The translations under genes were made by a program, and so were the position numbers. The notes beneath the pieces were generated by a model that worked only from the letters and a program-made list of their open reading frames with translations, searched no databases and was not told the DNA's origin. This document shows, piece after piece, positions 11,514-26,225 of a stretch of DNA of 26,225 nucleotides. The DNA lies in IMG/VR virus record IMGVR_UViG_2537562013_000006, positions 1 to 26,225 of that record. One strand, given 5' to 3'. This DNA comes from a virus (taxonomy: Duplodnaviria > Heunggongvirae > Uroviricota > Caudoviricetes). Numbering within the stretch: position 1 is the stretch's first letter; the number at the start of each line of letters is the position of its first letter.

Positions 11514-12287
11514 TCAGGCGGGATAAGATTGGGAGGTGGGAAAAACGATTTCTTTATAACAGCGACAATTCGGGAGCTCGCCAGCGTGACCTGTCATGCC
11601 GTCAAGCGTTGGAGGTTTGCCCCATTCGACAAATTTACCTTCCATTTCCCGATGAGAATGCCTGACGTCACCATCTTCGGCTGTACGCCAGATATAACCA
11701 TTCGAACCAATTGACAGCGCACGCGCCTGATCCAGCGCGCCGGTTGCACGTCCAAGTTCAGTACGGGCAATCAGGTCAGCTCTGGACTTTGCTATATCAC
11801 CCGATGCGGCTATTTCTTTAGCAAAATATTCTGCTCTCCCACCGGTCACAACAGCTTCTGTCGCCCGATTCTGGATGTCGTACACCCTGTCAGCCGCCTC
11901 GAGGGGGAGCGATTTGATGTACTTGACCTGTTCGGCGATGATGGATTGCATCACCTGGCCCACAGGAGCGCTTTCCACAAGATTGCGGAGCTCGCGACTG
12001 ATGTTCTTGCTGTGTTGCCGCCAAACTTTCTCGTTCTGCCGGGTTAGGTCCGCAGTAAAGTTTTCCGCGACCTTTGTCGCCCAGGGGGTGATGATTTCAC
12101 TGTAGCGTTCCAGCGCCTCAATAATTTCCGTGATACTGTCATTTGAACCATCGTAGCGACCATTTACGATGTCTCCGACCGCCCGCGCTATCCTGCGTAG
12201 GCTGGTTCGATAGCGGATTTCCGCCTGACGGTTCCTGCGGTTCGTCATCAGATTCGCCGATGCCGGGCGGCGCTTCATCTTCGGCAT
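11514..12287 (-). CDS. Phage Mu F-like head morphogenesis (minor head) protein (257 aa)
   Basis: C-terminal signature HSHREMEGKFVEWGKPPTLDGMTGHAGELPNCRCY is typical of the Mu gpF / SPP1 gp7 family, and the gene sits right after the portal. Start is ambiguous (ATG at 12287, 12278 or 12248) and overlaps the portal 3' end. Confidence 0.7.
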   Translation of the reverse strand: MPKMKRRPASANLMTNRRNRQAEIRYRTSLRRIARAVGDIVNGRYDGSNDSITEIIEALERYSEIITPWATKVAENFTADLTRQNEKVWRQHSKNISRELRNLVESAPVGQVMQSIIAEQVKYIKSLPLEAADRVYDIQNRATEAVVTGGRAEYFAKEIAASGDIAKSRADLIARTELGRATGALDQARALSIGSNGYIWRTAEDGDVRHSHREMEGKFVEWGKPPTLDGMTGHAGELPNCRCYKEIVFPTSQSYPA

Positions 12288-13605
12288 TCTCGATGTCCTC
12301 GTCGGTAATGGATGCCCCGATGCCGGTTACGTCAGAATTTTCGCGCAAATCAGTCATAGCGGCTTTCAGTGTCATCAGACCATCACCCAGCGCCGTACTG
12401 ATTGCGTTGGTAGTGTTTAACGCCACCGTTGAGCGATCGACATCAGACATTTGCCAGAGCGGGTTAAACTCAAACGTGAATTCGTCCGGCAGCGGCTTGC
12501 CAAGCTCCGAACGATGCATGATGTCCAGTATCCGCCGCACCGGAAGACGTAAACGCCTCTCCTGTAACGAGCTTACCCGGTCGTAATAGTTGGCAAGGTC
12601 TGCATCGCCGGTAGAAAATCCTTTCGGGGACTGTCCGAACAACCGCACCAGTGGGATACCAACAGCGCCACTAATCTGTTCTGCAAACTGCGAAAGGATG
12701 TCATCCAGACCACTGAAGCTGTACTGATGCGTTTCAAACTTATCCCGCGAGTCCATGAGTGTCATACCTTCATTGCTCTGGAACTGTCGAATCAGGTCGA
12801 TATTCTTCAGCAACGCTTCATACGCAGGACCACCAAGTGCGATAAGCTCGCGTAGCTTCTCCACGCTGTAGGTGCGCAGATGCGCCTTGTAGACCAGCTG
12901 CGCCGCGCCGACAGTAGCGCTGTCGAACGCGGTAAGACGATCCCAGATACGCTCTACAACCGACATTCCCCATTCGTTCTCGGTCATCTTCTGCTGAAAT
13001 GGCAGCGTGACGCCATCAAAGCGAATCAGGCGACTGTGATGAATGCGCCAGGCAGGAATTCCCGTTGCTGTGGTCACCACATCGTAAAACTCAGGTTTAC
13101 CCAGGTCCGGCCCCATATCTTTAATGCGGCGGGTCAGTACCGGGTCGATCATCCAGCGGTCGAGCGGGAGAATCCCCTTAAACTTGCCCTTACCGATGGT
13201 TTCGGGTCGCAGCGGGGTCATTGGTGCCTGCCCCTCAATCATGATGAAACCCACCGCGCCGCCGTAGAGGCGCGACCATTTCAGCACGTCATTCAGCGCA
13301 TCCCAGATTTGCAACTCATCCAGTTGTGATTCGAGAATGCCACGATCTTTTGCATCAATTTCCGACGTGATGCGAATGCCTTTGCGGGTCATATCATCCG
13401 GGATAGCATCGACTGCTTCGCCGATGATCCAGGATGAACGATAGGACCATTCCACCAGCATGCGGTTACGACTGGTGAAATTAGCCCGGTAGGTGGATGC
13501 TGAGTGCTGGTTAGGTGTCTGCATCCCTACGCGGGCAATAAAATTCTCATAACCATCAGCTGTGGCCTGCGCAGTTCGCCGCAGGGCTTGTTTGTTTCGT
13601 GCCAT
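12139..13605 (-). CDS. Portal protein (488 aa)
   Basis: ATG at 13605 overlaps the terminase large subunit stop (ATGA). Size, acidic C-terminal tail and position after the terminase. Confidence 0.75.
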   Translation of the reverse strand: MARNKQALRRTAQATADGYENFIARVGMQTPNQHSASTYRANFTSRNRMLVEWSYRSSWIIGEAVDAIPDDMTRKGIRITSEIDAKDRGILESQLDELQIWDALNDVLKWSRLYGGAVGFIMIEGQAPMTPLRPETIGKGKFKGILPLDRWMIDPVLTRRIKDMGPDLGKPEFYDVVTTATGIPAWRIHHSRLIRFDGVTLPFQQKMTENEWGMSVVERIWDRLTAFDSATVGAAQLVYKAHLRTYSVEKLRELIALGGPAYEALLKNIDLIRQFQSNEGMTLMDSRDKFETHQYSFSGLDDILSQFAEQISGAVGIPLVRLFGQSPKGFSTGDADLANYYDRVSSLQERRLRLPVRRILDIMHRSELGKPLPDEFTFEFNPLWQMSDVDRSTVALNTTNAISTALGDGLMTLKAAMTDLRENSDVTGIGASITDEDIENAEDEAPPGIGESDDEPQEPSGGNPLSNQPTQDSAGGRRHRKWSLRWFK

Positions 13606-15227
13606 CAGGCCTGTCTCCCTAGCAGCTCCCAGATGTTCAGGGCTGAATTCATTGGGGCATAGTTGATCATCACCGAGTCGGCAAGGTTTGGCGATCGGGT
13701 TCCATCAGGCTGTTTATCAATAACGATTTTTCCCACACCATTAATGGAATAGGTCGGCTGCGAAAGCTCGATGATGAGTTTATCTTTGAGTGCCATGCTA
13801 CTGCTGATTGAGATGATTTCGTCCGGGTTGTAAGCCATACCTTCAACCACGGCGCGCCAGGTATTCTGAAAAAGTTTACGTAACCGCCACCAGCTCTGGG
13901 CTTTGGCGTTAGCGAAGAAGTCCTTGTTCAGACGTGCGGCTTGCCCGTTGTCCCCGCGAACAGCTTCATCATCCGGATCAAATACCGCGCCACTACCTCG
14001 AAACGGTGTGGCAAGTATTGACGGTCGACGCGCAGCGTTACGCAGTTCGTTGATAGCGCGTGCATCGCCGCGAACGCCAGCGCCCAGCCCGTCCTCGTCA
14101 AAGCGAAACTCTTCGAGGTTGTCCTGTTCGCAAAAGCCGAAAACCTTCTCGACGGACTGATAAATGTCGCTGCCCACACCGGACCATTCCCGCACATTTT
14201 CCAGGAGGAAGCCATGACGGGTGGAAAAGGCATTTTTGTCCCTGCCTTCGTCGGCGACATCCATCGCGCCAAGTCGTTTGCCTGTTGGCTGGATACCCAG
14301 TTTGATATGCGCATCAACGGCAGCCTGTACCCATTCGGATGGAATCAGAACGCCTTCCGCTGATGCGCTGTAGTTCAGATCAAGTTCCTGTGCCACCACC
14401 ACCGGATTATCGATTTTCTCGCATTCCCTGCGATACCACTCTTCATCCTTGCGAGGATCATCCCGCCAGTGGAATGTGAATACCGGTATCTTCCCGCCAT
14501 GACGCTTCTGAGCGAACGGGTTAGCCATGCCGTTAACTGAACTCAGGTCGATACGGCAACGCGTCGTTTGTGACAACGCCGCATCAATCAGCAGAGGACG
14601 CTGAAGGAATGCAGCCTCATCAACCAGATAAAGCGTGGTACGGTCACCACGACCAATATTATCGCCAGCCTCGCCTTTGATAACGGCACCAGTTTCAGGA
14701 AACTCAACACGCATATATGGCGCGTGCTTCTTCTCGCTCCACGAACCGCGAAACTCTACAGGTAGCGTTTCCACGAACTTGCGTGCCTTCCAGAACAATG
14801 CTTTCGGGTCACCGGTGCTGTCGACGTATTCCTCTTTACGGGAGCCGAAACCGATAACCATTTCTTTGTTGAAGAGACAAAGCGAGCAGGCCAGTCCGAT
14901 CGCGGTCCAACTGAGCCCCATTTCACGGGATTTTTCGGTAATACCATTCTCCCGATTGCCCCAGCGTTCCATAATCCAGTGGATCCACTCCTCCTGCTTA
15001 GGGAAGAGTAAAAACGGAATGGTCACCGGCAGGCCATAATCAATATTACGCGGGTCCGTTGTCATGCCCCAGTCGATGATGAACTGAGCCGGATTGGTTC
15101 GGTAAAACTGCTTCAATACGGGCAATATTTCAGGATTCTGGCGAATGCGCTGTAGGCGTTCCATCCGCCATTCAAAAACCATCTGGTAATCAGGATGTTT
15201 AAAATCGAAGGGGAATGGTAACGGCAT
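13605..15227 (-). CDS. Terminase large subunit (540 aa)
   Basis: N-terminal ATPase region with a Walker-B-like [10 protein letters not shown] and a C-terminal nuclease-like region; follows the small subunit with a 2-nt gap. Confidence 0.85.
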
Positions 15228-15229
15228 AC

Positions 15230-15802
15230 TTAGCCCATCATTTTTCTATACGCCTCTGCAGCCTGCTCCGGCGTTAAGTTGGTAATTTCTGTTCTGACGG
15301 GTCCTCCATCAGCGCCAGTCACTTCATTTTTGACGTTGTCTTTAAACGCCTGAACAGAAACATGACGCCCAAGCAACTCAAGGTTTTTAACCTTATCAGG
15401 CCACTTAATCTTTTTAAGGATCCCGACCATTTCTCTGTCATCTCCTCGCCCCTCAAACATTTCAGCGAGGTTAAATCCACTCAGGTACCGACGCCACGAT
15501 TCCGGCCACGCAGACAGAGGCTTAATACTTAAATCGTCCTCCAGGATGTCAGCCACATCGAGCCTGTCGATCTCAACCAGTCGCATCAGCACATAATTAG
15601 CATCAATGCCCAGTTGATCAATACGCTCCTGCTTTAGCTCGTTAATACGGGCGCGTATCTCAGGTTTACCGTATAGTTCAGCCCCCGTAACATGTGCTCG
15701 CCTGGAGACGTAGCCTGCGCGAATAGCTGCTTGTGTAGCATTCAGATCGACAAGAAACTCGCGACAAAACACCTCGTGTTTTGCTTTCAGCTTCTTAGTC
15801 AT
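15230..15802 (-). CDS. Terminase small subunit (190 aa)
   Basis: N-terminal motif [25 protein letters not shown] is typical of the Terminase_2-type small subunit; lies directly upstream of the large subunit. Confidence 0.75.
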
Positions 15803-15863
15803 TTTATTTTCCAGTTATCAGGTCATTATCGAAGCCCCTCCTGGAAGAGCTTCTGTAATGCTA

Positions 15864-16388
15864 TTACCGGGACTGTTCTATTTGTCGGACACCAGCCAAC
15901 TGGTTATTCGCCTTCTCGATGGCTGCCAACAGTGGGTTAATCCACAGAACAGCCTGGCAATATGTCAACGTTCTGGTGGTAGTGGCACGATCACCGGCTG
16001 AGTCAATGTCCCCGGAATCGGCGTGCAATGCGCTGGCGCGTAAACGGTTCGCGTAGTTGAGCAACCCGACAGCAATATCAACAGGAACAGGGAAATCACA
16101 GTTCTTTTCACGGAGCAGAACCTCACGGTATTTGATGACTGTCTTCTCGTGACCGATGTCGACCAGAGAATTTAATCGGCTTGCGTTTTCTGCTATCTGG
16201 TTAAAACGATTGAAGTTTAATGCCTGATTAGCTATCACTTTCCCTTGATATTCAGCTTCACCTTCCGCTTTATCAGCCCACAACTTTTCTGCCTGATACT
16301 TGCTGTGGTAATGGTTTGCAGACCAGACGAGCGCCCCAAAGGCAGAGAAGAAAAATGCCGCGATGACAATCTTATAAGTCAGCTTCAT
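15864..16388 (-). CDS. Rz-like inner-membrane spanin (174 aa)
   Basis: N-terminal transmembrane segment (IVIAAFFFSAFGALVW) followed by a helical periplasmic domain. Third gene of the holin-endolysin-spanin cassette; its start overlaps the endolysin 3' end. Confidence 0.7.
   Translation of the reverse strand: MKLTYKIVIAAFFFSAFGALVWSANHYHSKYQAEKLWADKAEGEAEYQGKVIANQALNFNRFNQIAENASRLNSLVDIGHEKTVIKYREVLLREKNCDFPVPVDIAVGLLNYANRLRASALHADSGDIDSAGDRATTTRTLTYCQAVLWINPLLAAIEKANNQLAGVRQIEQSR
15965..16111 (-). CDS. Rz1-like outer-membrane lipoprotein spanin, embedded in Rz in the +1 frame (48 aa, GTG start)
   Basis: Hand translation of the +1 frame inside Rz gives (M)KRTVISLFLLILLSGCSTTRTVYAPAHCTPIPGTLTQPVIVPLPPER. 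It has a lipobox (LLSGC) and a Pro-rich mature part with a second Cys. GAGG lies 9 nt upstream of the GTG. Not in the ORF track because it is under 60 aa and non-ATG. Confidence 0.55.
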   Translation of the reverse strand: MKRTVISLFLLILLSGCSTTRTVYAPAHCTPIPGTLTQPVIVPLPPER

Positions 16389-16848
16389 TTACCACCCCAC
16401 CAGCATCTTTAAACCTGGAAATCAGGTCACCGATTTTATGTTCATACTGACCGTAACCTGCACCAGGTAACGACGCCCAGATATTGCTGCAACGGTCGAT
16501 TGCCTGACGAATATCGCCACGGTCAATCATCGGTAAAGCGCCACGCTCTTTAATCTGCTGCAGCGCCACAGCGTCCTGACTTTCTGGCGAAAAATCTTTC
16601 AGGCCAAGCTGCTTGCGGTAGGCATCCCACCAGCGTGAAAGAAGCTGATACCGGCCTGCGGCTGTTGATTTAAGCTTCGGGTTTAGCGTGACAAGTTTGC
16701 GAGGGTGATCGGAGTAATCAGTGAACAACTCACCTCCGACGATAACGTCATAACCGTGATTACGTGTCGGTTGTCGCCCGTTATCCGTTCCTTCTGACCA
16801 TGCCACCATATCCAGGAAAGCTTTGCGTTGGGAATTTAGTGTCTGCAT
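16372..16848 (-). CDS. R: Endolysin, lambda R-type lytic transglycosylase (158 aa)
   Basis: Near-identical over most of its length to phage lambda R as I recall it (QRKAFLDM.AWSEGTDNGRQ.TRNHGYDVIVGGELFTDYSDHPRKLVTLNPKLKST.AGRYQLLSRWWDAYRKQLGLKDFSP), including the catalytic Glu in WSEGTD. Confidence 0.9.
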   Translation of the reverse strand: MQTLNSQRKAFLDMVAWSEGTDNGRQPTRNHGYDVIVGGELFTDYSDHPRKLVTLNPKLKSTAAGRYQLLSRWWDAYRKQLGLKDFSPESQDAVALQQIKERGALPMIDRGDIRQAIDRCSNIWASLPGAGYGQYEHKIGDLISRFKDAGGVVNEADL

Positions 16849-16851
16849 GAA

Positions 16852-17193
16852 TTACTCCTTAGAGCCACCAAACTTGTTACCGATTACTCGCATTGCAGCC
16901 CCACGAATAGCATCGACACCGATCAGCCCAACACCACCACCAATGGCAACAGAAAGAGATTTAGGCCATCCAACATACTCAAGAGCGGATGCAAAGGTCA
17001 GCGTCAGAGCACCACAGAGCAAAATCTCAAGCGTTTTTCGTTTCCAGCCGCCGCCACCGCCAAAATAGGCAATGCGCAAGCCAGCCATAACAATTGACAT
17101 AACCACTGCGCCCAACGGCGTATCTCCACGCCACCAACTTTGTAAGAGTTCCAGTAAGTCAGGCCAGGAATGAGGAGCATTGTGCATTTTCAT
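16852..17193 (-). CDS. Class I holin with dual-start motif (113 aa from M7; track ORF starts at 17211)
   Basis: Strong SD GGAGGT 7 nt upstream of the ATG at 17193 followed by Met-Lys-Met (MKMHNAP...), the same arrangement as the lambda S107/S105 dual start. Three predicted transmembrane segments. Immediately upstream of the endolysin. Confidence 0.8.
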   Translation of the reverse strand: MKMHNAPHSWPDLLELLQSWWRGDTPLGAVVMSIVMAGLRIAYFGGGGGWKRKTLEILLCGALTLTFASALEYVGWPKSLSVAIGGGVGLIGVDAIRGAAMRVIGNKFGGSKE

Positions 17194-17294
17194 ACTTCCC
17201 ACCTCCGCCATTACGGGGTGTTGTTGAAAGGCGGGCCCTGCGTATACGCCCGTAGGATTGGGTTATGAGCCGTCCTTCGGTGGGCCCTGAATAC

Positions 17295-17318
17295 AAAAAA
17301 AGTTCGCCATAGCGAACC
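17295..17318 (-). terminator. Intrinsic terminator about 100 bp upstream of the holin (tR'-like)
   Basis: Minus-strand read: GGTTCGC-TATG-GCGAAC followed by TTTTTTT (perfect 6-7 bp stem, 4-nt loop, U7). Confidence 0.55.
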
Positions 17319-17547
17319 TTGTTAAATTTGTTAAAAAAGGAAGTTATTTAACATAATGTACGTTATAGGAACCACACGATCCCCGCTCGCAATAGATTTG
17401 CGATGAAAGGCCTATTTAATCAACTTAAGTGGTCCAGAATGACGAAATTCGAGTGAATAAAAGGTGCATAAAAAAGGGCAAAAACTGCATAGCGTTTTTT
17501 CGCAGCGAAAGCCCTGTTTTATTAACTTTTCCCCAGAATGGGGCAAT

Positions 17548-17571
17548 AAAAAAGGCCCCCTTGCGGAAGCC
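17548..17571 (-). terminator. Intrinsic terminator downstream of the 113-aa ORF
   Basis: Minus-strand read: GGCTTCC-GCAA-GGGGGCC followed by TTTTTT (7-bp stem with two G-U pairs, GNRA-type loop). Confidence 0.4.
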
Positions 17572-17638
17572 TCTTCGTGATGAACTGTTTTCAACAGATA
17601 TCAGGCTAATCGGCTTTTTGGAATTCCACAACTATTTT

Positions 17639-17980
17639 TTATCTTACCTTGATGCCTGATGCCGTCAGATGTTTACGACAGTCCTGAATACCTTCGTTAT
17701 AACCCGCATCGTAGAAGCTATCCGGCTTTGCCTTCAGCGCAGGAAGCGTAACGCTGGTAGCTCTTCGTTCGGCCAGAACACCTGCCTGAAAGAGTGTCCA
17801 CATCAACTGAACTGCTGAATCACAGTAAGTAACATCTTCACTGTACAATTCTCGTTCAATCCTGATGCCAAGTTGAGCCTTCATTGATGCGCCAATATTA
17901 CCTTTGACCTGCAACGACAGGTCTGGGTACCTCTGTTCCATGAAGCTTTCAAATCTGTTGCGAACGCTGATCAGAGCCAT
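17639..17980 (-). CDS. Hypothetical protein (113 aa) between the Q-like gene and the lysis cassette
   Basis: ATG at 17980 with AAGGGA SD, 31 bp after the Q-like stop. No recognisable motif. Confidence 0.5.
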   Translation of the reverse strand: MALISVRNRFESFMEQRYPDLSLQVKGNIGASMKAQLGIRIERELYSEDVTYCDSAVQLMWTLFQAGVLAERRATSVTLPALKAKPDSFYDAGYNEGIQDCRKHLTASGIKVR

Positions 17981-18011
17981 CTGGTTCCCTTACGTGATTG
18001 ATTGCTGGATA

Positions 18012-18434
18012 TTATGCCGCCGAGCAGCTCCTACGCAAAGTCCTGATAGCCTGAGGCTTTGACTGAACCGACTGATCCATTTCGAGCACCACATCCAGCA
18101 TGGCTAAGCAACCGTCAATAAATCCCTCTGCCGCCTGAAGCCTCTTCAGAACGTGGGTGTGAGATACGCCGAGCTTCTCACCCATCGCCCGCACGGGCAT
18201 GGCCTGGACGTAATGCCACTCAAGGAGCGTGCACAGATACGGATCTTTTTTCTTCAGGCAGCTCATAGCGGAGTTGATGATAAGACCGTCATTGTCACTG
18301 CATTTCAGCCTTCCAGACTGCGTCGCGGGTAGCAGATTCTTAAACCCGGCTGCAACAGGAGGAAAGTAGACGCTACCACCTTCACTCGCTGCCCAGCCAC
18401 CCCAGCGCTCTAAAACCTGTTGAATATTACGCAT
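18012..18434 (-). CDS. Putative late-gene antiterminator, short Q-like (140 aa)
   Basis: ATG at 18434. Located between the replication genes and the lysis cassette. N-terminus (MRNIQQVLERWGGWAA...) and size resemble short Q-type antiterminators of lambdoid prophages as I recall them; not verified. Confidence 0.5.
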   Translation of the reverse strand: MRNIQQVLERWGGWAASEGGSVYFPPVAAGFKNLLPATQSGRLKCSDNDGLIINSAMSCLKKKDPYLCTLLEWHYVQAMPVRAMGEKLGVSHTHVLKRLQAAEGFIDGCLAMLDVVLEMDQSVQSKPQAIRTLRRSCSAA

Positions 18435-18487
18435 AGCTCTGACCTCTACGTTTTGCTACGAAAAATTTTTCTGAGAACTACGTCTGT

Positions 18488-18760
18488 TTATCCGTGGGTG
18501 TGGATAACGCAGTTCCGATCCGCATATTGCATGTATCAACATGCAAAAAGTTGCTAATTCGGAGTGGAACCACCTGCCCCCACCTGGAACCACCTTTTCC
18601 TAACCTTTCCCTCAATCGACTTATATATATATATGGGGTTTCTAGTAGAAAGGCGGTTCCAGTGGTTCCAGTAGTTCCGCCCCGCTTGCCACAAGGTCTG
18701 CAAGGTGGAACCACCTTCTCTTCTAGGTGGTTCCGCGTGGTTCCAGCGGTTCCCAAACCT
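18488..18760. repeat. Putative replication origin: iteron cluster (GGAACCACC / GGTGGTTCC), AT-rich tract, DnaA-box-like inverted pair and a 7-bp-arm palindrome
   Basis: GTGGAACCACCT-type 11-12-mers at 18564-18575, 18584-18595 and 18705-18716. GGTTCC copies at 18655, 18664, 18729, 18739, 18748 and a degenerate one at 18673. (TA)n tract at 18621-18634. TTATCCGTG (18488-18496) and a perfect DnaA box TGTGGATAA (18499-18507). Palindrome TTGCATG-N6-CATGCAA at 18527-18546. Lies immediately 3' of the primase gene. Confidence 0.55.
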
Positions 18761-20909
18761 TGCATTTTTTCCCCCCAATTCGCCTTTGGGCACGCTTATA
18801 CCCGCAATTTTGCAAAACATTACTAATTCGCATTTCTTCGCGTTTTCCGATGCGGTCAGGATTTAGCCCAATCGCATCACGCAAAACATCACTTGCGCGT
18901 AAAAATTCGCAATTTCGCGGAAGTTCATTAGTCATCAGGTCGGGCGTGTCGAGCCATTTCTCTACCGTTTCAAGCCAAGCATCCTTGATGGTGTACTGTT
19001 CATGGACACTCGCTGCCAGTTGTTCAGCCTCACGGAACTGGATACCCCCCAGACGCTGAAACACCTCACGAGCCTCAGCCCAAAGTAAAAGGAGATCTCT
19101 TTTTATCGCTTTCACGTCGACTTTCGACACTTCCACGGGGAGCCAGCGACGGTTACCAGTCTTGTCCGCAAGGAATTCGTCCTCATTAGTGGTACCAACG
19201 AACACCAGGCGACGAGGAAACTGGGTGGCGAACTCCCGGTATTTCGGGATCCAGTTTTCGTGAGTACGCGTCACAAACGCTTTGATTGACTCCAGCTCTT
19301 TGGTATTAAGCCCGCGCAGTTCACCAATCTCTGCCACCAGCCGACCACGCATTTTTCGAGCGAGATCATCGTCTTTTTCGGCAAAAGAGATTTCAGTAAA
19401 AAACGCAGGATCAGGGCTCAGTGCCTCCACTCCGGAAGACTTACCGCAGCCCTGCGGACCAACGAGGATCGGCACCATATCCGCTTTGATGCCTGGCTCC
19501 AGTACTCGCCCCGCCAACGCGGTCCACATGTACATAGACACCGCACGGGTATAAGGCGTGTCGGCGGTACCGAAGTGCGTATGGTAGAAACATTCGATGC
19601 GCGGCACGCCATCCCACTCCAGTCCGTTCAGCCAGGTGATCGCTGAATCGAATGGTTGTTCATCGGCTGCAAGTAACACCACATCGCGAATAAGTTCACG
19701 GCCAACAGGTTTAAATCCCCGCTTTTCCATCGTGATGCGCAGGCGCGCATAATCCGCATCGGTGAATGCCCGCCATTGTCCGGATCCTGCCGGGGCAAAC
19801 ATGATTTCGTCGCGGAACTGGTCAAAGCGAATATCGATGTCCACAAAATCAGAGCGTACTACTGCTTTGGCTGCATTGCTGATGGTTGCCTCGATACGCC
19901 CCCATTTATCACGCTCGAAAGCAGGCAGCGGTAAAGGTTCCGCCACTTCGATGCTGGTCAGATCTTCGAAATCGTCGTTGCGGATCCCGATGGCATTCAG
20001 GAAATCTCCGTCATCACGATGCGCGCAACTGGCATGCAGGCATTTAAAATGCCCCTGCTCAAAGCCTGCGGTTCCCGCAGGAAAATAAACTGTGCTTGTT
20101 GGATCGCCTCCGCTACTGTGGCCGTCTTCAAACGGACAGCGGATATATCGTTCACCGTTTGCGCCATCCAGCAGCGTCCAGCCATTGGCATCAAGATATT
20201 CAGCTGTATCATCCGTCGCGCCGGGCGTGAATGCTGAACGGTCGCGCATCTTCGTGTTGCCCGCTTCGGTGGTTACCGACACAGGGAGTTGTTCAGCCAG
20301 GCGCTGCCACAGCGTTTCAAGCTGCTCACCTGTAATAGCCGGAGGTTCATCCGGCAAACCACCGTCCCATTCAATACGCGCGCCGCTGCTGTGCGTACCA
20401 CAGGCAACGAACTGCTGCCCGTTCGCCAGCAACTCGATAATGCCCATATCCCCCGCCAGGCGATGGATACGCTTACGGAAATCACCATCAACGGCCAGCA
20501 GATACAGACACTTATTACTGTTTGCTCGCCAGCGTCGCGGCGGCGACTCACCCAGAAGTTGCACAAGTGTTTTGCGAATATCTGCCTGAATGTCTTCATC
20601 TTCGCTATCGCAGTCCAGCGCCAGCCAGCCATGGCCTGTACGCACGCAGATGCCATAATCCGGTTCATTCGACCAGCGGGCAAAATCATGCTCAGTAACA
20701 ACATGCCCGGTCCATTGAGCAATACCTGTGACCTGGCGGTCCCGGTTATAGCGACTCGGCGTCTTACCCAACGCTTTCAATTTACTATCAGGGGATATGG
20801 TCGCACTGGGGTTACATACAACTGGGAGAAGATGAGCAGTCCGCCCCAATACCAGGTCGAAATGAAACCACTCATCAGGCGTAGCTCCCCATGGTTTGCT
20901 ATCGGACAT
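18723..20909 (-). CDS. Replication primase-helicase (PrimPol N-terminal domain, zinc-binding region, VirE/P-loop C-terminal domain; 728 aa)
   Basis: N-terminal primase-polymerase-like region (GWLALDCDSED), Cys/His cluster (CPFEDGH...FKCLHASCAH), Walker A GPQGCGKSS. ATG at 20909 with AAGGTG SD, 3 nt after the cro-like stop. Confidence 0.85.
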   Translation of the reverse strand: MSDSKPWGATPDEWFHFDLVLGRTAHLLPVVCNPSATISPDSKLKALGKTPSRYNRDRQVTGIAQWTGHVVTEHDFARWSNEPDYGICVRTGHGWLALDCDSEDEDIQADIRKTLVQLLGESPPRRWRANSNKCLYLLAVDGDFRKRIHRLAGDMGIIELLANGQQFVACGTHSSGARIEWDGGLPDEPPAITGEQLETLWQRLAEQLPVSVTTEAGNTKMRDRSAFTPGATDDTAEYLDANGWTLLDGANGERYIRCPFEDGHSSGGDPTSTVYFPAGTAGFEQGHFKCLHASCAHRDDGDFLNAIGIRNDDFEDLTSIEVAEPLPLPAFERDKWGRIEATISNAAKAVVRSDFVDIDIRFDQFRDEIMFAPAGSGQWRAFTDADYARLRITMEKRGFKPVGRELIRDVVLLAADEQPFDSAITWLNGLEWDGVPRIECFYHTHFGTADTPYTRAVSMYMWTALAGRVLEPGIKADMVPILVGPQGCGKSSGVEALSPDPAFFTEISFAEKDDDLARKMRGRLVAEIGELRGLNTKELESIKAFVTRTHENWIPKYREFATQFPRRLVFVGTTNEDEFLADKTGNRRWLPVEVSKVDVKAIKRDLLLLWAEAREVFQRLGGIQFREAEQLAASVHEQYTIKDAWLETVEKWLDTPDLMTNELPRNCEFLRASDVLRDAIGLNPDRIGKREEMRISNVLQNCGYKRAQRRIGGKKCKVWEPLEPRGTT

Positions 20910-20912
20910 GGG

Positions 20913-21113
20913 TTACACCTTTTGTCTAGCTGTCACTTCCTGAAAAAGTTTTTCTATCGCACGTACTGTAGAAAAGCGAGGGTCAGAATGAACCCCGGTA
21001 AGAAGCCGACTAATAGAAGACTGCTTCACGCCTGCAATTTCGGCAATTTGGTTTTGGGTATACCCTGAATCAATCAAGCTTTTGACCATCTCTTGTGGTG
21101 TTAGTCCGGACAT
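20913..21113 (-). CDS. Cro-like HTH transcriptional regulator (66 aa)
   Basis: Helix-turn-helix core QNQIAEIAGVKQSSISRLL; small protein transcribed divergently from the cI-like repressor; GGAG SD. Confidence 0.75.
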   Translation of the reverse strand: MSGLTPQEMVKSLIDSGYTQNQIAEIAGVKQSSISRLLTGVHSDPRFSTVRAIEKLFQEVTARQKV

Positions 21114-21146
21114 ATTTAAGTCTCCACTTTCGTCTATAGCGCAAAT

Positions 21147-21220
21147 TTATACGAAAACGGATTACTCAGCAATACAGCAATTCTATGTCATCCTAGATTA
21201 AAATATCCGATAACGCATAA
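21147..21220. promoter_or_regulatory. Candidate operator region between the cro-like and cI-like genes (imperfect inverted 16-mers)
   Basis: TTATACGAAAACGGAT at 21147-21162 and its imperfect inverted partner ATCCGATAACGCATAA at 21205-21220 (12/16 match). Short palindromes CTATAG (21132-21137) and TGTATACA (21231-21238) are also present. Promoter hexamers were not confidently assigned. Confidence 0.3.
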
Positions 21221-21254
21221 TCACCGTCCCTGTATACAACATGGATGAATCCAA

Positions 21255-21929
21255 ATGATTGATACTACCGATATCCTTTCTCAAAACATCAAGTACCTGA
21301 TGGACAAAGCCAAGATAAGCTCGATAACTGAGCTGGCACGTCGGTTACAGCTGAACCAACCAACGCTACACAGGCTGGTATCAGGAGAGGTGAAAGATCC
21401 GAAATACGCAACGTTAAAGCAGATCGCCGACTACTTCCACGTGTCACCAATAGACTTGGCAGAAAGGAGCCTTCAAGAAATGGAGAAAGAGGACGCGACA
21501 GGTATAAAAACGTATATTTCTCTTAGGTTTAATAAAGTACCTGTTTTGGGAAACACTCAGCTAGGCGTTGGAGGACTTTGGAGCGACACCCAATATTCAG
21601 TAGGTAGCAGTGATGGTTTCATATACTGGCCGACAAAGGATGAAGATGCATACGCCCTGAAATGTGTTGGTGATTCAATGATGCCTAGAATCAAAGAGGG
21701 GGAGTTCGTAATCGTCGAACCCAACCACGACTACACTCCTGGTGATGAAGTACTTGTGGTTACCCGGGAAGGTGAGGTCATGGTTAAAACCTTCTTGTTC
21801 GAACGCGATGGCCTGTTCCATCTAATGTCTGTAAATGAAGATCATCCACCAGTCAGAGTACCACGCGAAAACATTGAAAAAATCCATTACGTGGCGGGGA
21901 TCGCCAAATCCGCGCTACGTATGTACTAA
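21255..21929 (+). CDS. CI-like repressor with C-terminal LexA/S24 peptidase domain (224 aa)
   Basis: N-terminal HTH (ITELARRLQLNQPTLHRLVSG), C-terminal S24 fold with Ser in GDSMMP and Lys in VMVKTF about 38 residues later. Confidence 0.85.
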   Translation: MIDTTDILSQNIKYLMDKAKISSITELARRLQLNQPTLHRLVSGEVKDPKYATLKQIADYFHVSPIDLAERSLQEMEKEDATGIKTYISLRFNKVPVLGNTQLGVGGLWSDTQYSVGSSDGFIYWPTKDEDAYALKCVGDSMMPRIKEGEFVIVEPNHDYTPGDEVLVVTREGEVMVKTFLFERDGLFHLMSVNEDHPPVRVPRENIEKIHYVAGIAKSALRMY

Positions 21930-21961
21930 CCTTTACAGTCTGATAACTTACTTCTGATCAA

Positions 21962-21988
21962 ACCGCTCTCCACAAGGGCGGTTTTCTT
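21962..21988 (+). terminator. Intrinsic terminator after the repressor gene
   Basis: CCGCTC-(7-nt loop)-GGGCGG followed by TTTTCTTATTT, 33 nt after the cI-like stop. Confidence 0.5.
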
Positions 21989-22013
21989 ATTTGCAAAATA
22001 ATTCATTTTCGTA

Positions 22014-22042
22014 TTGACACAAAATCCCATAACGCATATAAA
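22014..22042 (+). promoter_or_regulatory. Near-consensus sigma70 promoter with no downstream ORF
   Basis: TTGACA (22014-22019), 17-bp spacer, TATAAA (22037-22042). Followed by a hairpin plus T6 (CGCAT-AATTA-ATGCG-TTTTTT, 22051-22071) and then about 270 bp without a plausible ORF. Confidence 0.35.
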
Positions 22043-22347
22043 TACGATGTCGCATAATTAATGCGTTTTTTAATACTGGCTCTTTAACAAACTGAACCGC
22101 GTGACAGGTAAGCCGCAGTACTCCTGGCAAAACGAAATAGCACCCGATGGGATCGAGGTAAGCGCCGAGTCCGTATGCGTACGGTAAGCGTAGAGGACAA
22201 CACCGCGACAAACTGATAAGTCACGCAAGTTGAAACGCCCCGACGATGGGGCGCTTAGTTCCTTTTGGGGTGGGGTGAAGATCAGTCCATTGAGTCAATC
22301 CGAAGTTCAGCATCTACCACTACACCACCACCAAAGAGAACTGCTAA

Positions 22348-22872
22348 TCATCTGGCAGGTTGTAACGGTGCAGGAGTTTTGCCACTGACTTCTATATTTC
22401 GGGGAAATTTATATTCAGCGGAGCATTTATGACACTTGAGAATTTTATAAGCGGCATTAGAAGTATGGTATTGAAGTATAGACTTCATACCCGACTCATA
22501 GCATGTAGTACAAAGATAATGAGGCTTGAACTCAGGATCGTCAGTAGGCTTCAGTACATAGACCACCGTATTGGTAATCGGGTGGTACATTTCATAGTTC
22601 ATTTTCTCACTATCCCAATCCTGTTTCTTTTCCAGAAGGGATTCGAGTTCAACAATGCGCTGTTTAGCTTCGTTCAAAAGCTCCGTTAGTGCGAATTGTC
22701 CAGTACGCGCATCAATTAGTTTATCAAGTAGATCGATAGTTTTACTTTTAACATTGTAATCCACCTGCAACGCATTAACTTCTTTTGCTAAATCAACAGC
22801 ACCTTTCAAAGCACCACCAGCACTAGTGGCCGCCTCAGTTATACGCCGTACAAGTCCTTTTTCTTCAGACAT
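22348..22872 (-). CDS. Hypothetical coiled-coil plus C4 zinc-ribbon protein (174 aa), low-GC cargo gene
   Basis: ATG at 22872. Helical N-terminal half; C-terminal C-X2-C-X22-C-X2-C (CTTC...CHKC). GC about 40 percent by eye versus a visibly GC-richer backbone. Transcribed opposite to both neighbours. Confidence 0.55.
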   Translation of the reverse strand: MSEEKGLVRRITEAATSAGGALKGAVDLAKEVNALQVDYNVKSKTIDLLDKLIDARTGQFALTELLNEAKQRIVELESLLEKKQDWDSEKMNYEMYHPITNTVVYVLKPTDDPEFKPHYLCTTCYESGMKSILQYHTSNAAYKILKCHKCSAEYKFPRNIEVSGKTPAPLQPAR

Positions 22873-22889
22873 CTTAATTCTCTCTAAAA

Positions 22890-22940
22890 CTATAGGGGTA
22901 AAGAGATATTAGCCGAATTCTCGCTGTAGGGGTACAGAGA
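22890..22940. repeat. Two direct 17-bp repeats upstream of the 174-aa gene
   Basis: CTATAGGGGTAAAGAGA (22890-22906) and CTGTAGGGGTACAGAGA (22924-22940), 15/17 identical, 34 bp start to start, in the divergent control region. Confidence 0.35.
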
Positions 22941-23011
22941 GAGCCATCTCGTCTGACGTGGTTAAAAGCAGGCATTCGCTGACATCCAAGTAATTGCTGT
23001 GTGTAGCCTTT

Positions 23012-23037
23012 GCCCGCCTCAAGTGACGGGCTTTTTT
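23012..23037 (+). terminator. Hairpin plus T6 in the leader of the rightward early operon (terminator/attenuator-like)
   Basis: GCCCG-(10-nt loop)-CGGGC followed by TTTTTT, about 60 bp upstream of the first early gene. Confidence 0.4.
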
Positions 23038-23096
23038 ATGTCTGAAAGCGCACTCGCAACAGCGTGCTCCCCGATATGAAAAAAGGAATACAACCG

Positions 23097-23246
23097 ATGA
23101 AACCTGAATACCTCCATCGACTGACGGGGCGCGATGTTCTCCGTTATCGCCGTAAAAACTTCGATTTGATGACCGGTCTGGCCGTTGCCACTGCGCTCGG
23201 TCTGATCATCACTTTCATTCTCCTTGTAGCGAGGACCACAGTATGA
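23097..23246 (+). CDS. Small membrane protein (49 aa), first gene of the rightward operon
   Basis: The track ORF begins with GTG at 23064. ATG at 23097 has AAGGA 9 nt upstream. C-terminal hydrophobic helix (LMTGLAVATALGLIITFILLVA). Stop overlaps the next start (ATGA). Confidence 0.45.
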   Translation: MKPEYLHRLTGRDVLRYRRKNFDLMTGLAVATALGLIITFILLVARTTV

Positions 23247-23545
23247 GTTTAGAAACCAGTCTCGAACTTAATAATCAACTTCTGGCACAACATAATGCGC
23301 TGCTTGAACGTCTTATCCGCACAATGGCATCAGGCATTGTTATGCATCCTGACACGATTTCACGAGTGCAGGAATGTCGGGATACAGCAACTGAAACTGA
23401 AAATATGTCAGCGGCAATGACACTGGATGATCTGGAGTTCAGCGACGTTATCGCACTGGCTGGTTTCTACCCGGTAGCCACCCCTATCACAGAAGACATG
23501 CTGCAACGTGCTGTTGCCTACCGTGATGCTGAAGGCGATGGTTGA
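23243..23545 (+). CDS. Hypothetical acidic early protein (100 aa)
   Basis: ATG at 23243, translationally coupled to the upstream gene; Asp/Glu-rich; no recognised motif. Confidence 0.5.
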   Translation: MSLETSLELNNQLLAQHNALLERLIRTMASGIVMHPDTISRVQECRDTATETENMSAAMTLDDLEFSDVIALAGFYPVATPITEDMLQRAVAYRDAEGDG

Positions 23546-23685
23546 TCCTCCAGTTAGCAAAAGGGGGTTACCGGGCAGAAGCTATTGCAATTCTGGAAAA
23601 ACAGGGAGCCAGGAAACTTGGTGAAGTAACGGATGAAAATCTCGCTGAAGTAATCACCCTGGCTGAAAAAGCACTGGAGGGTTAA
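23542..23685 (+). CDS. Possible small ORF (47 aa, TTG start) filling the gap before the nuclease gene
   Basis: Open frame from TTG at 23542 (GAAGG 6 nt upstream) to TAA at 23683-23685, ending 2 nt before the nuclease ATG. Reads [47 protein letters not shown]. No ATG; weak call. Confidence 0.25.
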
Positions 23686-23687
23686 TC

Positions 23688-24989
23688 ATGCCAGACGTTC
23701 ATGCACAACTTTCTCCATCATCAGCGCATCGATGGATGCGCTGCCCAGGAAGTCTGGCGCTGGAGGCCACACAACCGGATAAAGAAACAACTTTTGCAAT
23801 CGAGGGCACTGCAGCGCACGCGCTTGCTGAAAAAGTTCTACGAAACAGGCAAAGCTACCCGGAACACTACGCCGGATGCAATGTTTCTATGTTTCTCGGC
23901 TCATACCCCCTTCGCGAAAATCCTAATGATACATCTGGCCCACAGGTGGATGATGAAATGGTCGAAGCCGTTGGCCGGTATGTTGATACGGTCTGGACTC
24001 TTGCACAGAATAATGAACTATTGGTTGAACAACGTGTTGATTTCTCACATATAACGGGTGTGGAAGAATCTTTCGGAACTGCCGACGGCATAATCATTGC
24101 TGGTAGCGAATTACAAATCCACGACCTGAAATATGGCAAAGGCGTCCGCATTGATGCAGAACAAAATGAGCAACTACAACTGTATGCTCTGGGTGCGCTC
24201 GAACAATTCAGCATGCTGTATGACTTTGAGACTGTAAGATTATTTATTCACCAGCCAAGGCTCAACCACGTTTCAGAATGGTCGTTAACCGTACAGGAAC
24301 TTCAGTCTTTCGGTGAACGGGCACTGGAGGCCGCAACCAGTGCGATCCTTGTTCTCAATATTGCTGAATGCGAAGGCATTGAGACACTACCGCTGGAAAA
24401 CTTCATACCTGGAGAAAAACAGTGCCGCTTCTGTAAAGCAAAAGCTATTTGCACTGCCCAGAAAATGCAGCATTTACAAACAGCGGCCAGCGATTTTGAA
24501 GATCTGACAAAGCCTGTCAGCGAAATAATCTCCAATGCCAGCGCACGTGTACCTCTGTTAACCATTGAGCAGCTTGCGGAGATCTATAGCCAGGCCGACT
24601 TTATTGAATCCTGGCTAAAGGCAGTACGAGACCGGGTTCACAATGAACTCAATGCCGGACATCCGGTACCGGGGTTTAAACTGGTAACAGGAAAACAAGG
24701 TAACCGGGCCTGGAGTGATGAAGAGGCAGCTCGCGCACTTCTGAAGGACCAGTTCAGGTACAAAACTGAAGAAGTATTCGACTTTAAACTTATTAGCCCC
24801 ACAAAAGCCGAAAAACTTATCAAAAAGGCCAGTCCGCGCCGTTGGTCAAAAGTCGAGGCACTGATAACACGAGCTGATGGTAAACCCACCATCGTTCCCG
24901 AGTCAGACCCACGCCCCGCACTCAATATCAACCCTGTAAATGATTTCGACGACGTATCCGACGATACGCTAACCGCAGACCTCATCTGA
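23688..24989 (+). CDS. Cas4-like / RecB-family PD-(D/E)XK nuclease with 4-Cys cluster (433 aa; DUF2800-type as recalled)
   Basis: QLQLYALG (QxxxY) and a D..ELQIHDLK nuclease core. One N-terminal Cys (RCPGS) plus C-terminal C-X2-C-X5-C ([10 protein letters not shown]), the Cas4/AddB-type Fe-S arrangement. GGAGGG SD. Confidence 0.8.
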
Positions 24990-25004
24990 TTTAAGGAAAT
25001 ACCC

Positions 25005-25553
25005 ATGAAACTGAAGCTGAACAATGTTCGTCTGGCCTTCCCGTCTCTGTTTGAAGCTAAAACTGTAAACGGCGAAGGCGATCCACGTTTCTCCGCAGTA
25101 TTTTTAATGTCACCCAAACACCCACAACTGGAAGAAATCCGTAAAGCTATGAAGCAGGTAGCGAAGGAAAAATGGGGAGAGAAGTGGGAGCCCATTTATA
25201 ACCAACTGGAGAAAAAACTCAAGCTGTGCCTGCATGATGGTGATGAAAAAGCAGAGTATGAAGGCTTCCCCGGCAATTTCTTCCTGAATGCTGCTAACAA
25301 AGCGCGCCCAGCTGTTCTTGATCGCGATCGTTCGCCACTTATTCAGGCTGATGGACGTCCCTATGCAGGGTGCTATGTAAACGCCGTTATCGATATCTGG
25401 GCACAGGACAATAATTTCGGTAAACGCATTAATGCCTCACTCGGCGGAGTCCAGTTCCTGCGAGACGGCGATGCATTCGCTGGCGGCGGAGTGGCAAGCG
25501 CTGACGATTTCGACGATATCAGCGAAGGTGCTGATGCTGAAGCACTGATTTAA
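25005..25553 (+). CDS. SSB-like protein (182 aa; DUF2815-type as recalled)
   Basis: AGGAAA SD; acidic C-terminal tail (DDFDDISEGADAEALI) reminiscent of SSB tails; follows the nuclease gene, as is usual for this gene pair. Confidence 0.65.
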   Translation: MKLKLNNVRLAFPSLFEAKTVNGEGDPRFSAVFLMSPKHPQLEEIRKAMKQVAKEKWGEKWEPIYNQLEKKLKLCLHDGDEKAEYEGFPGNFFLNAANKARPAVLDRDRSPLIQADGRPYAGCYVNAVIDIWAQDNNFGKRINASLGGVQFLRDGDAFAGGGVASADDFDDISEGADAEALI

Positions 25554-25605
25554 CCCTACTTCATAGACGCCCGGTTAAATACCGGGCTGCTGATTAGGCG
25601 TATAA

Positions 25606-26225
25606 TCACTCAGGAATCTTAATCTTCCTCAATTCTTTATTTAGTTCACAGATCTTCTTCTTAGACGGGAAAGTATCATACATCCAAAAACCAACAGTCT
25701 CTAAAACTATTGTCATAACCATATACACAAGATAATTTAAAAGGCCTTCATTTTGCCCTATGGAAATAATGCAGATAATAGAAAAAAGGATAAACAGCAC
25801 AAAACACAGAAAGGAAAACAGACGACTAATAATAAATAAAAAACCTGAAAAATTAACATTGATGAAAAACACTCCGTTATCTTTCTCTATATAATTCTGA
25901 AGCTTAATCACCTGATTTATATACTGTCTTTTTTCTAATCTATTGCAAATGTAAATAACATCACTTCGGTTATAAGAAGATTGCAATTTCAGCGCATCAC
26001 GAATAATTTTATCATTTATTCTTTTTTCTATGGCACTCTTATCCTCCTTATCCAGATAACGTTCATACTTAACTAAATATAAAATTAACTTCTTGACATA
26101 TTTAGGCTCTTTATACTTATAATTAAAAATGATCTTTCTTATCCAGACTCCCATAACAATCAAACATGAAAAAATATATCCAGCTATTTTCTCCAGATGC
26201 TCTGTATGGTCAATCAAGTATTGGA
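25606..26225 (-). CDS. AT-rich gene for a multi-pass membrane protein of unknown function, 5'-truncated by the window edge
   Basis: The track start at 26217 is TTG and the frame remains open to the window end, so the true start is probably outside. Very low GC. Predicted TM segments near residues 10-30, 120-150 and 160-180 of the listed ORF. Convergent with the early operon. Confidence 0.5.
   Translation of the reverse strand, partial: QYLIDHTEHLEKIAGYIFSCLIVMGVWIRKIIFNYKYKEPKYVKKLILYLVKYERYLDKEDKSAIEKRINDKIIRDALKLQSSYNRSDVIYICNRLEKRQYINQVIKLQNYIEKDNGVFFINVNFSGFLFIISRLFSFLCFVLFILFSIICIISIGQNEGLLNYLVYMVMTIVLETVGFWMYDTFPSKKKICELNKELRKIKIPE

Follow-up and report, generated by a model that had tools for sequence, protein, structure and literature searches.

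The stretch of DNA that we analyzed (26,225 nucleotides, hereafter the window) matches with 100% identity a prophage that lies beside yfhL in Escherichia coli O103:H2 strain 12009 and is present in many further strains. The element also carries terminase, portal, head, tail, baseplate, lysis, polymerase and integrase genes, together with a DUF2800/DUF2815/family-A polymerase/VRR-NUC/DEAD-helicase module, and is thus a full prophage. According to RefSeq, the copy in strain 12009 has a frameshift in its head-morphogenesis (minor head protein) gene, at approximately 11514-12249 (14514-15249 of locus L001), so that this particular copy may be defective for particle production. The locus of interest is organized around a primase-helicase gene on the minus strand (18723-20909), which encodes a protein of 728 amino acids with a primase region, a VapE-type AAA+ helicase and a predicted winged helix. 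It is preceded by a Cro-like HTH gene (20913-21113, minus strand), and a CI-like S24 repressor gene (21255-21929) is divergent from the minus-strand genes. Downstream lies a Q-family antiterminator gene (18012-18434, minus strand; Pfam Phage_antitermQ, E 5e-42), which we treat as context and not as part of the origin discussed below.

A cluster of short repeats, or iterons, starts within the last 10 codons of the primase-helicase gene and ends 157 bp past its stop codon. In strain 12009 it falls near 3,170,150-3,170,330 of NC_013353. Between positions 18566 and 18753 the sequence GGAACCAC occurs nine times with at most one mismatch, six of the nine copies being exact. Three copies are on the plus strand (starting at 18566, 18586 and 18707) and six on the minus strand (starting at 18653, 18662, 18671, 18727, 18737 and 18746). 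A tenth iteron, GTGGGGGC at 18576-18583, is degenerate and lies in register between two of the plus-strand copies, named C1 and C3 below. With one mismatch allowed, GGAACCAC is expected 19.3 times per 26 kb window, that is 0.14 times per 188 bp, and the Poisson probability of finding nine copies in 188 bp is approximately 4e-14. No second cluster of three or more matches was found in the 44.5 kb of the prophage and its flanks; a lone exact GGAACCAC lies outside the cluster at 17368. The conserved iteron unit measures 8-10 bp (T-GGAACCAC-C) and recurs with a period of 9-10 bp. The initial annotation of this region had described at least eight iterons in both orientations around a TA tract, and our count of nine with at most one mismatch plus one degenerate copy bears this out.

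Read on the gene strand from 18753 to 18566, the cluster consists of the direct iterons A0-A2, the inverted iteron A', the direct iterons B1-B3, a core of 57 bp and the inverted iterons C1-C3. Array A (18727-18753, minus strand) contains A0 (GGAACCGC), A1 and A2 (both GGAACCAC) as direct repeats 9-10 bp apart, and covers the last 10 codons of the primase together with its stop codon. The earlier remark that the last primase codons are made of iterons is correct, since these three iterons write W-E-P-L-E-P-R-G-T-T-stop. A' (18707-18714, plus strand) is one inverted iteron that pairs with A2 in a 10-bp inverted repeat, GGAACCACCT-N8-AGGTGGTTCC, and in RNA the two are predicted to form a hairpin of 10-12 bp at the primase stop codon (18707-18734). 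Array B (18653-18678, minus strand) is made of the iterons B1 to B3 (GGAACTAC, GGAACCAC and GGAACCGC), which are tandem direct repeats with a 9-bp period on the left flank of the core. Facing it across the core is array C (18566-18593, plus strand), where C1 and C3 (both GGAACCAC) enclose the degenerate C2, which reads GCCCCCAC in the orientation of the iterons; the three are inverted and have a 10-bp period.

The core between arrays B and C (18596-18652, 57 bp) is the proposed DNA-unwinding element and helicase-loading site, and reads CTTTCTACTAGAAACCCC-(AT)n-AAGTCGATTGAGGGAAAGGTTAGGAAAA on the minus strand. It contains a TA tract that was first reported as (TA)7 and that we measure as (TA)6T, 13 nt long, at 18622-18634; this is the sole run of four or more TA units in the window. 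In predicted stability the tract ranks 14th of 26,206, and the only 20-mers that are less stable lie in an AT-rich gene at 25.7-26.2 kb. This gene, an ORF of 203 amino acids at 25606-26217 on the minus strand, is very AT-rich, contains the stability minimum of the window and may have been acquired recently as an accessory gene. GC skew and broad AT-richness gave no signal at the locus, the GC/AT skew being dominated by the direction of transcription. Among otherwise near-identical prophages the length of (TA)n differs by up to approximately three TA units, the tract thus behaving like a slippage-prone microsatellite within the proposed unwinding element.

The protein encoded next to these repeats was analyzed by sequence and by structure prediction. 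Pfam places a VapE-like_dom at residues 427-639 (E 2.4e-60), and in PHROG residues 5-316 match family 1156 ('DNA primase') and the remainder family 256 ('DNA helicase'). There was no match to a Pfam primase family in the protein, nor any PDB sequence match to its N-terminal half; judging from the motifs LDCD and GTH, this half would be closer in look to the archaeo-eukaryotic prim-pol enzymes than to DnaG/TOPRIM. A phmmer search of the PDB returned a sole match, 7PDS (E 7.5e-34, query residues 393-657), which is the complex of SaPI1 Rep1 with DNA from the work on the staphylococcal self-loading helicase (PMC9371898). An AlphaFold2 model of residues 421-728 (mean pLDDT 93) matched the same structure in Foldseek with a TMq of 0.78 and an E-value of 2.2e-21, the identity to Rep1 being approximately 25%. 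At the C-terminus of the model two helices (672-680 and 689-701) are followed by a β-hairpin (704-711 and 714-721), and the C-terminal 70 or so residues (approximately 657-721) are predicted to form a winged helix. Taken alone, this C-terminal domain gave weak fold matches and no Foldseek match at E<0.03. The β-hairpin, hereafter the wing (residues 704-721, YKRAQRRI-GG-KKCKVWEP), is encoded at 18747-18800 on the minus strand.

To compare this arrangement across genomes we collected related loci from several sources. The origin DNA matches 105 E. coli genomes, of which about half are at least 95% identical; in the remaining genomes the match covers only the Q-proximal 65-74% of the query and has 80-84% identity. 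Some 100 further loci came from scanning IMG/VR and one genome per species, and the named phages Yersinia YeP4, APSE-1 and Caulobacter phage Jess A were added from GenBank. When the origin was used to search the DNA of a phage collection, only 60 bp of the Q gene end were matched. The same layout, with direct iterons, a conserved AT-rich core and inverted iterons, is present in approximately 95 related loci. It is found after the primase stop codon in E. coli, Trabulsiella, Pluralibacter, Pectobacterium, Xenorhabdus, Photorhabdus, Gilliamella/Orbaceae and Burkholderiales, and in Yersinia phage YeP4, APSE-1 and Caulobacter phage Jess A. A direct pair of iterons equivalent to array A sits at the stop codon in all relatives, and array B is found in every related locus with a class-specific sequence. 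In many relatives a gene other than Q follows the origin, and the array plan is independent of the downstream gene wherever the primase C-terminus is intact; a Sodalis copy (L018), whose C-terminal reading frame is disrupted, is without the array. In APSE-1 (L108, 2861-3082) the ORF annotated in GenBank as 'hypothetical protein P4' lies on the iteron array and the AT-rich core, and is probably spurious. In L005-L007 a boxA-like CGCTCTCTA is found approximately 90-130 bp past the origin, followed by a GC-rich hairpin and a T-run, a succession that from its sequence looks like a nut site or a terminator.

Close relatives of the window show which parts of this layout are fixed and which are exchanged. 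Three of the loci that match only in the Q-proximal part have the same architecture with other repeats, GTTACCAC in L002 and GTACCAAC in L003 and L004, and keep the core AACCCC-(AT)n-AAGTCG...GGGAAAGGTTAG. Their primase-helicases are 97-100% identical to that of the window until approximately 20 residues from the end and are then fully divergent. The Cro-like, Q and ORF113 proteins are the same in L003 as in the window, and the CI-like protein has a different accession. When positions 12,100-26,000 were compared with that prophage (MINF_2E), bins with less than 90% identity occurred only at 18500-18800. Within the class of loci that share the GGAACCAC iteron (22 distinct sequences), the mean pairwise difference is 0.05-0.10 in A', B, C, the TA tract and the right core (0.05-0.11 over the core as a whole), as against 0.21-0.25 in the spacers between arrays and 0.25-0.31 from array C to the start of Q; 9 of the 10 columns of A' and 23 of the 30 columns of array C are invariant. 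The core is nearly identical across iteron classes and genera. Such near-invariance across specificity classes suggests that the core may be read by a conserved part of the machinery, for example the helicase pore or the primase.

The 93 loci that could be parsed fall into approximately 12 iteron classes: GGAACCAC, GTACCAAC, GTCCCAAC, GTCCCCAC, GTAACCAC, GTATCCAC, GTTACCAC, GTAGCCAC, TAGACCAC, TAGACAAC, GTAACAAC and GTCACCAC. In all 93 the arrays A, B and C are of one class and no chimeras were seen, although arrays B and C are separated by the conserved core, which could support recombination. The wing is the sole part of the protein that changes with the iteron class. We found 22 wing octamers (G-K-x-x-K/R-x-W/F/Y-x), each of them associated with a single iteron family. 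Several pairs of proteins show no difference in the 300 residues that precede the wing and yet have different iteron classes, as exemplified by the window (GGAACCAC, ..GGKKCKVWE..) and L098 (GTACCAAC, ..GGKMTRIFE..), in which residues 714-728 of the window protein, KKCKVWEPLEPRGTT, are replaced by KMTRIFEAVSQPVPASK. The identical stretch of 300 residues includes the predicted recognition helix, which is the same across at least six iteron classes. Conversely, one class is also found on helicases that are only 72-90% identical and whose wing codons differ synonymously (window, L005 and L023). The primase wing is the only coding change that always accompanies a change of class. The wing codons are at most 60 bp from the iterons and array A lies over the tail codons, so that part of this co-variation reflects physical linkage and shared nucleotides. 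Two variants from IMG/VR (L038 and L087) have lost one array-A iteron through a 10-bp deletion, which shifts the frame of the primase tail after WEPLEP to ..PPKREGGSTLQAL; this suggests that the residues written by the iterons are probably passengers and dispensable.

The characterized systems closest to this arrangement are the replicons of the staphylococcal pathogenicity islands. In SaPI Reps a C-terminal winged-helix domain recognizes the iterons, and the SaPI origin comes straight after rep, with 6-12 iterons around an AT-rich centre, no fewer than two on each side and in opposite orientation (PMC9371898, PMC7581432). The protein studied here shares with the SaPI Reps (SaPI1 Rep1, 7PDS; SaPI5 PriRep5, 7OLA; SaPIbov1) a homologous helicase core and, as predicted, a C-terminal winged helix, and with SaPI5 the fusion of primase and helicase. 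The DNA likewise has its repeats directly 3' of the initiator ORF, with 10 iteron positions, an AT-rich centre and convergent sides. The iterons are longer here (8-10 bp instead of 5-6 bp), a difference of detail and not of plan. Unlike in the SaPIs, a third array overlaps the last codons and the stop codon of the initiator, the 57-bp core is conserved across specificity classes, and specificity would map to the last 15-30 or so residues. The host element also differs, because it is not a PICI/SaPI satellite but a complete temperate phage of Enterobacteria of approximately 40 kb with its own family-A polymerase. In E. coli PICIs such as EcCICFT073 two iteron sets flank an AT-rich region downstream of pri-rep, and a pri-rep-ori segment drives plasmid replication in E. 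coli (PMC6092414). Likened by description, these have the same host species and the same plan as the element described here, but they are satellites with alpA control. The SCCmec helicase Cch2 has a SaPI-Rep-like role and binds direct repeats that closely follow the gene encoding it (PMC7581432); it too resembles the present element by description, with three 5-nt iterons, a separate primase and polymerase, and a putative origin.

Two phage systems were compared as well. The α protein of P4, which the initial annotation had named as an example of the primase-helicases that serve such origins, is a single polypeptide in which a primase and a superfamily-3-type helicase are joined to an origin-binding winged-helix domain at the C-terminus, its primase domain being of the DnaG type (PMC2777425). 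No P4 α chain was retrieved by the PDB sequence search at E<=1, and the P4 α origin-binding domain (1KA8) was not among the top 50-60 fold matches for the C-terminal domain. The origin of P4 is built of short iterons and its replication requires ori and crr, two cis sites at separate places, whereas here there is one cluster in 44.5 kb. P4 α is thus an architectural analogue only, and the closest characterized proteins by sequence and fold are the SaPI Rep/Pri-Rep helicases. In phage λ the O protein binds iterons beside an AT-rich region within its own coding sequence, the origin being located in the early rightward operon upstream of Q. The likeness lies in initiator-bound iterons next to AT-rich DNA that overlap the initiator's own gene. 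However, λ O is not a helicase and recruits DnaB via P, oriλ lies in the middle of O, and no O/P homologues are annotated here.

In all, the homology of the protein and the comparative anatomy of the loci strongly support the proposal of the initial annotation that an iteron-type origin lies directly 3' of the primase-helicase gene and is served by the adjacent protein, probably through its C-terminal domain. We consider it very probable that the replication origin of this temperate phage lies at 18566-18753 and is of the SaPI/PICI Pri-Rep/ori type; binding of the protein, melting, double-hexamer loading and origin activity are what we infer from these comparisons. It would then be a Pri-Rep/ori replicon of this known type in a lineage of full temperate phages of Gram-negative bacteria. 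Upon induction, the operon of the cro-like, primase-helicase and Q genes would be transcribed through the origin. The primase-helicase would bind the 8-10-bp iterons via the β-hairpin wing of its C-terminal winged helix, and B1-B3 together with the inverted C1-C3 would place two helicase rings face to face across the 57-bp core. The (TA)6T tract would then melt and the rings would load themselves onto the single strands, after which the N-terminal primase domain would make primers to be extended by the family-A DNA polymerase of the phage, whose gene lies outside the window. Array A, with A0-A2 and the inverted A' at the stop codon, would serve as an auxiliary binding site. A caveat on the replication mode after initiation is that the phage also has a separate DEAD/DEAH helicase and a polymerase of its own. 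No report on the origin of this phage group or of APSE, or on this element, was found in the papers searched.

Alternatively the repeats could be operators that time the switch from early to late expression via the downstream Q gene, possibly with the primase C-terminal domain as the regulator, and not an origin. The array does occupy the leader that separates the primase gene from Q, and a scan for consensus promoters and terminators found nothing in 18435-18722, so that Q transcription must pass through the array. The strong A2/A' hairpin moreover has the look of a terminator and is followed by a U-run in many relatives. This run, UUUU(U), is present after the hairpin in the GTACCAAC, GTTACCAC and GTAACCAC classes (for instance at 3760-3830 of L003), where it points to a possible secondary role in attenuating read-through into Q. 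In contrast the hairpin of the window itself is without a U-run. The intergenic region had no Rfam match at E<=1. The gene downstream is not Q in L005-L007, L010-L013 and Jess A and the array is still attached to the primase 3' end, while convergent arrays around a TA-rich core fit the plan of SaPI/PICI origins. We therefore regard an operator function in place of an origin as improbable; binding of the initiator could have a regulatory side-effect in addition to its role at the origin.

A related proposal concerned the palindrome TTGCATG-N6-CATGCAA, which was suggested to be an operator of the Q-like gene promoter. The palindrome is indeed present at 18527-18546, but it is lineage-specific and not conserved as a palindrome, and the absence of a promoter-like site in the leader does not favour an operator role. 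Its promoter-distal half is overlapped by a motif, TTTTTGCA (18542-18549, minus strand reading), which as TTTTTGCA or TTATTGCA comes after the last inverted iteron in almost every relative, those of Burkholderiales and Gilliamella among them; a promoter element and a priming site are both possibilities for it. We also considered a hidden ORF in the intergenic region (of 95 or 88 amino acids) and rejected it because the variation of (TA)n and the 10-bp deletion shift the frames among close relatives. The sole terminator-like site on the gene strand is found further downstream, at 17320-17299 on the minus strand, in the late-gene leader between ORF113 and the holin gene. The hairpin and AT-rich stretch at 17299-17500 are probably a Q-dependent late promoter with its leader and terminator.

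The region could also be a DnaA-dependent theta origin of the plasmid type, in which DnaA at a pair of boxes and an iteron-bound initiator together open the TA tract. A perfect DnaA box, TTATCCACA (TGTGGATAA on the plus strand), is located on the minus strand of the Q leader at 18499-18507, 59 bp from the nearest iteron, and the chance of a box within approximately 300 bp of the array is about 0.01. The second box of the reported pair, TTATCCGTG at 18488-18496, departs from TTATCCACA at three of nine positions and is not a consensus box, so that of the pair a single box stands. Such a box is at chance frequency, with 0.78 expected per window and at least one in 49 of 100 shuffled sequences. 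Neither is it conserved: among the 33 loci that have the Q-proximal segment 20 carry TTATCCACA and the other 13 carry non-consensus versions (TTACCTATG, TTACCCACG, TTATTCACG, TTATCCCCA and others), some of them within the same iteron class, and the box is absent from relatives with another downstream gene. The stretch that contains it is one of the most variable parts of the region (0.31). Furthermore, by analogy, SaPI Reps are self-loading and no added loading factor has been identified for them (PMC9371898). On these comparisons the DnaA box and the palindrome are probably not part of the origin, and we find dependence on DnaA quite improbable. It is even harder to believe that the repeats are a pac or a partition/centromere-like site bound by a protein other than the primase-helicase since, even though short direct and inverted repeat arrays are also found at pac and parS-like sites, the array is approximately 2.7 kb from the small-terminase gene (15230-15802) and the two are not linked in any relative, the integrated prophage has no annotated partition genes, the primase wing alone always changes with the iteron class, and the cassette is tiny and without a conserved ORF.

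The assignment of 18566-18753 as a Pri-Rep/ori origin would provide a testable origin for widespread temperate phages, among them prophages of E. coli O103, O45, O55 and ETEC strains and Yersinia YeP4-6. The same origin type would cover the aphid-symbiont phage APSE and prophages of Xenorhabdus and Photorhabdus. It would also mean that full phages of Gram-negative hosts use the SaPI/PICI design of a self-loading helicase with a 3' iteron origin. The series of iteron classes on an otherwise identical helicase offers a system for studying how the wing of a winged helix reads DNA, and should be useful for the study of replicon specificity and incompatibility among co-resident prophages and for building orthogonal replicons.

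The co-variation of wing and iterons raises the question of which residues confer specificity. Candidates suggested by the alignments are those of the β2-β3 wing and, in the pair formed by the window and L098, only those of β3 and the tail. It is conceivable, and we propose it tentatively, that origin specificity resides nearly entirely in the β3 strand of the wing, that is in some 15 C-terminal residues that are encoded beside, and partly by, their own iterons. If this were true, the wing and the origin would form a 'specificity cassette' of approximately 260 bp moved by recombination between otherwise identical replication modules, and the loci collected here would amount to a naturally occurring set of no fewer than 12 orthogonal initiator/origin pairs on one helicase scaffold. 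We also examined a simple one-residue code, in which Trp in the wing goes with C and Phe or Tyr with A at iteron position 6. Before APSE-1 was included this code fitted 94 loci and three pairs of sister classes. APSE-1 (L108) contradicts it, having the wing GKVCRVW with GTAACAACC iterons, and the code was rejected. The near-identical wing of L014, GKVCKVW, is found with GTAACCACC/GTATCCACC iterons, the Lys/Arg difference between it and APSE-1 accompanying a C/A change in the iteron.
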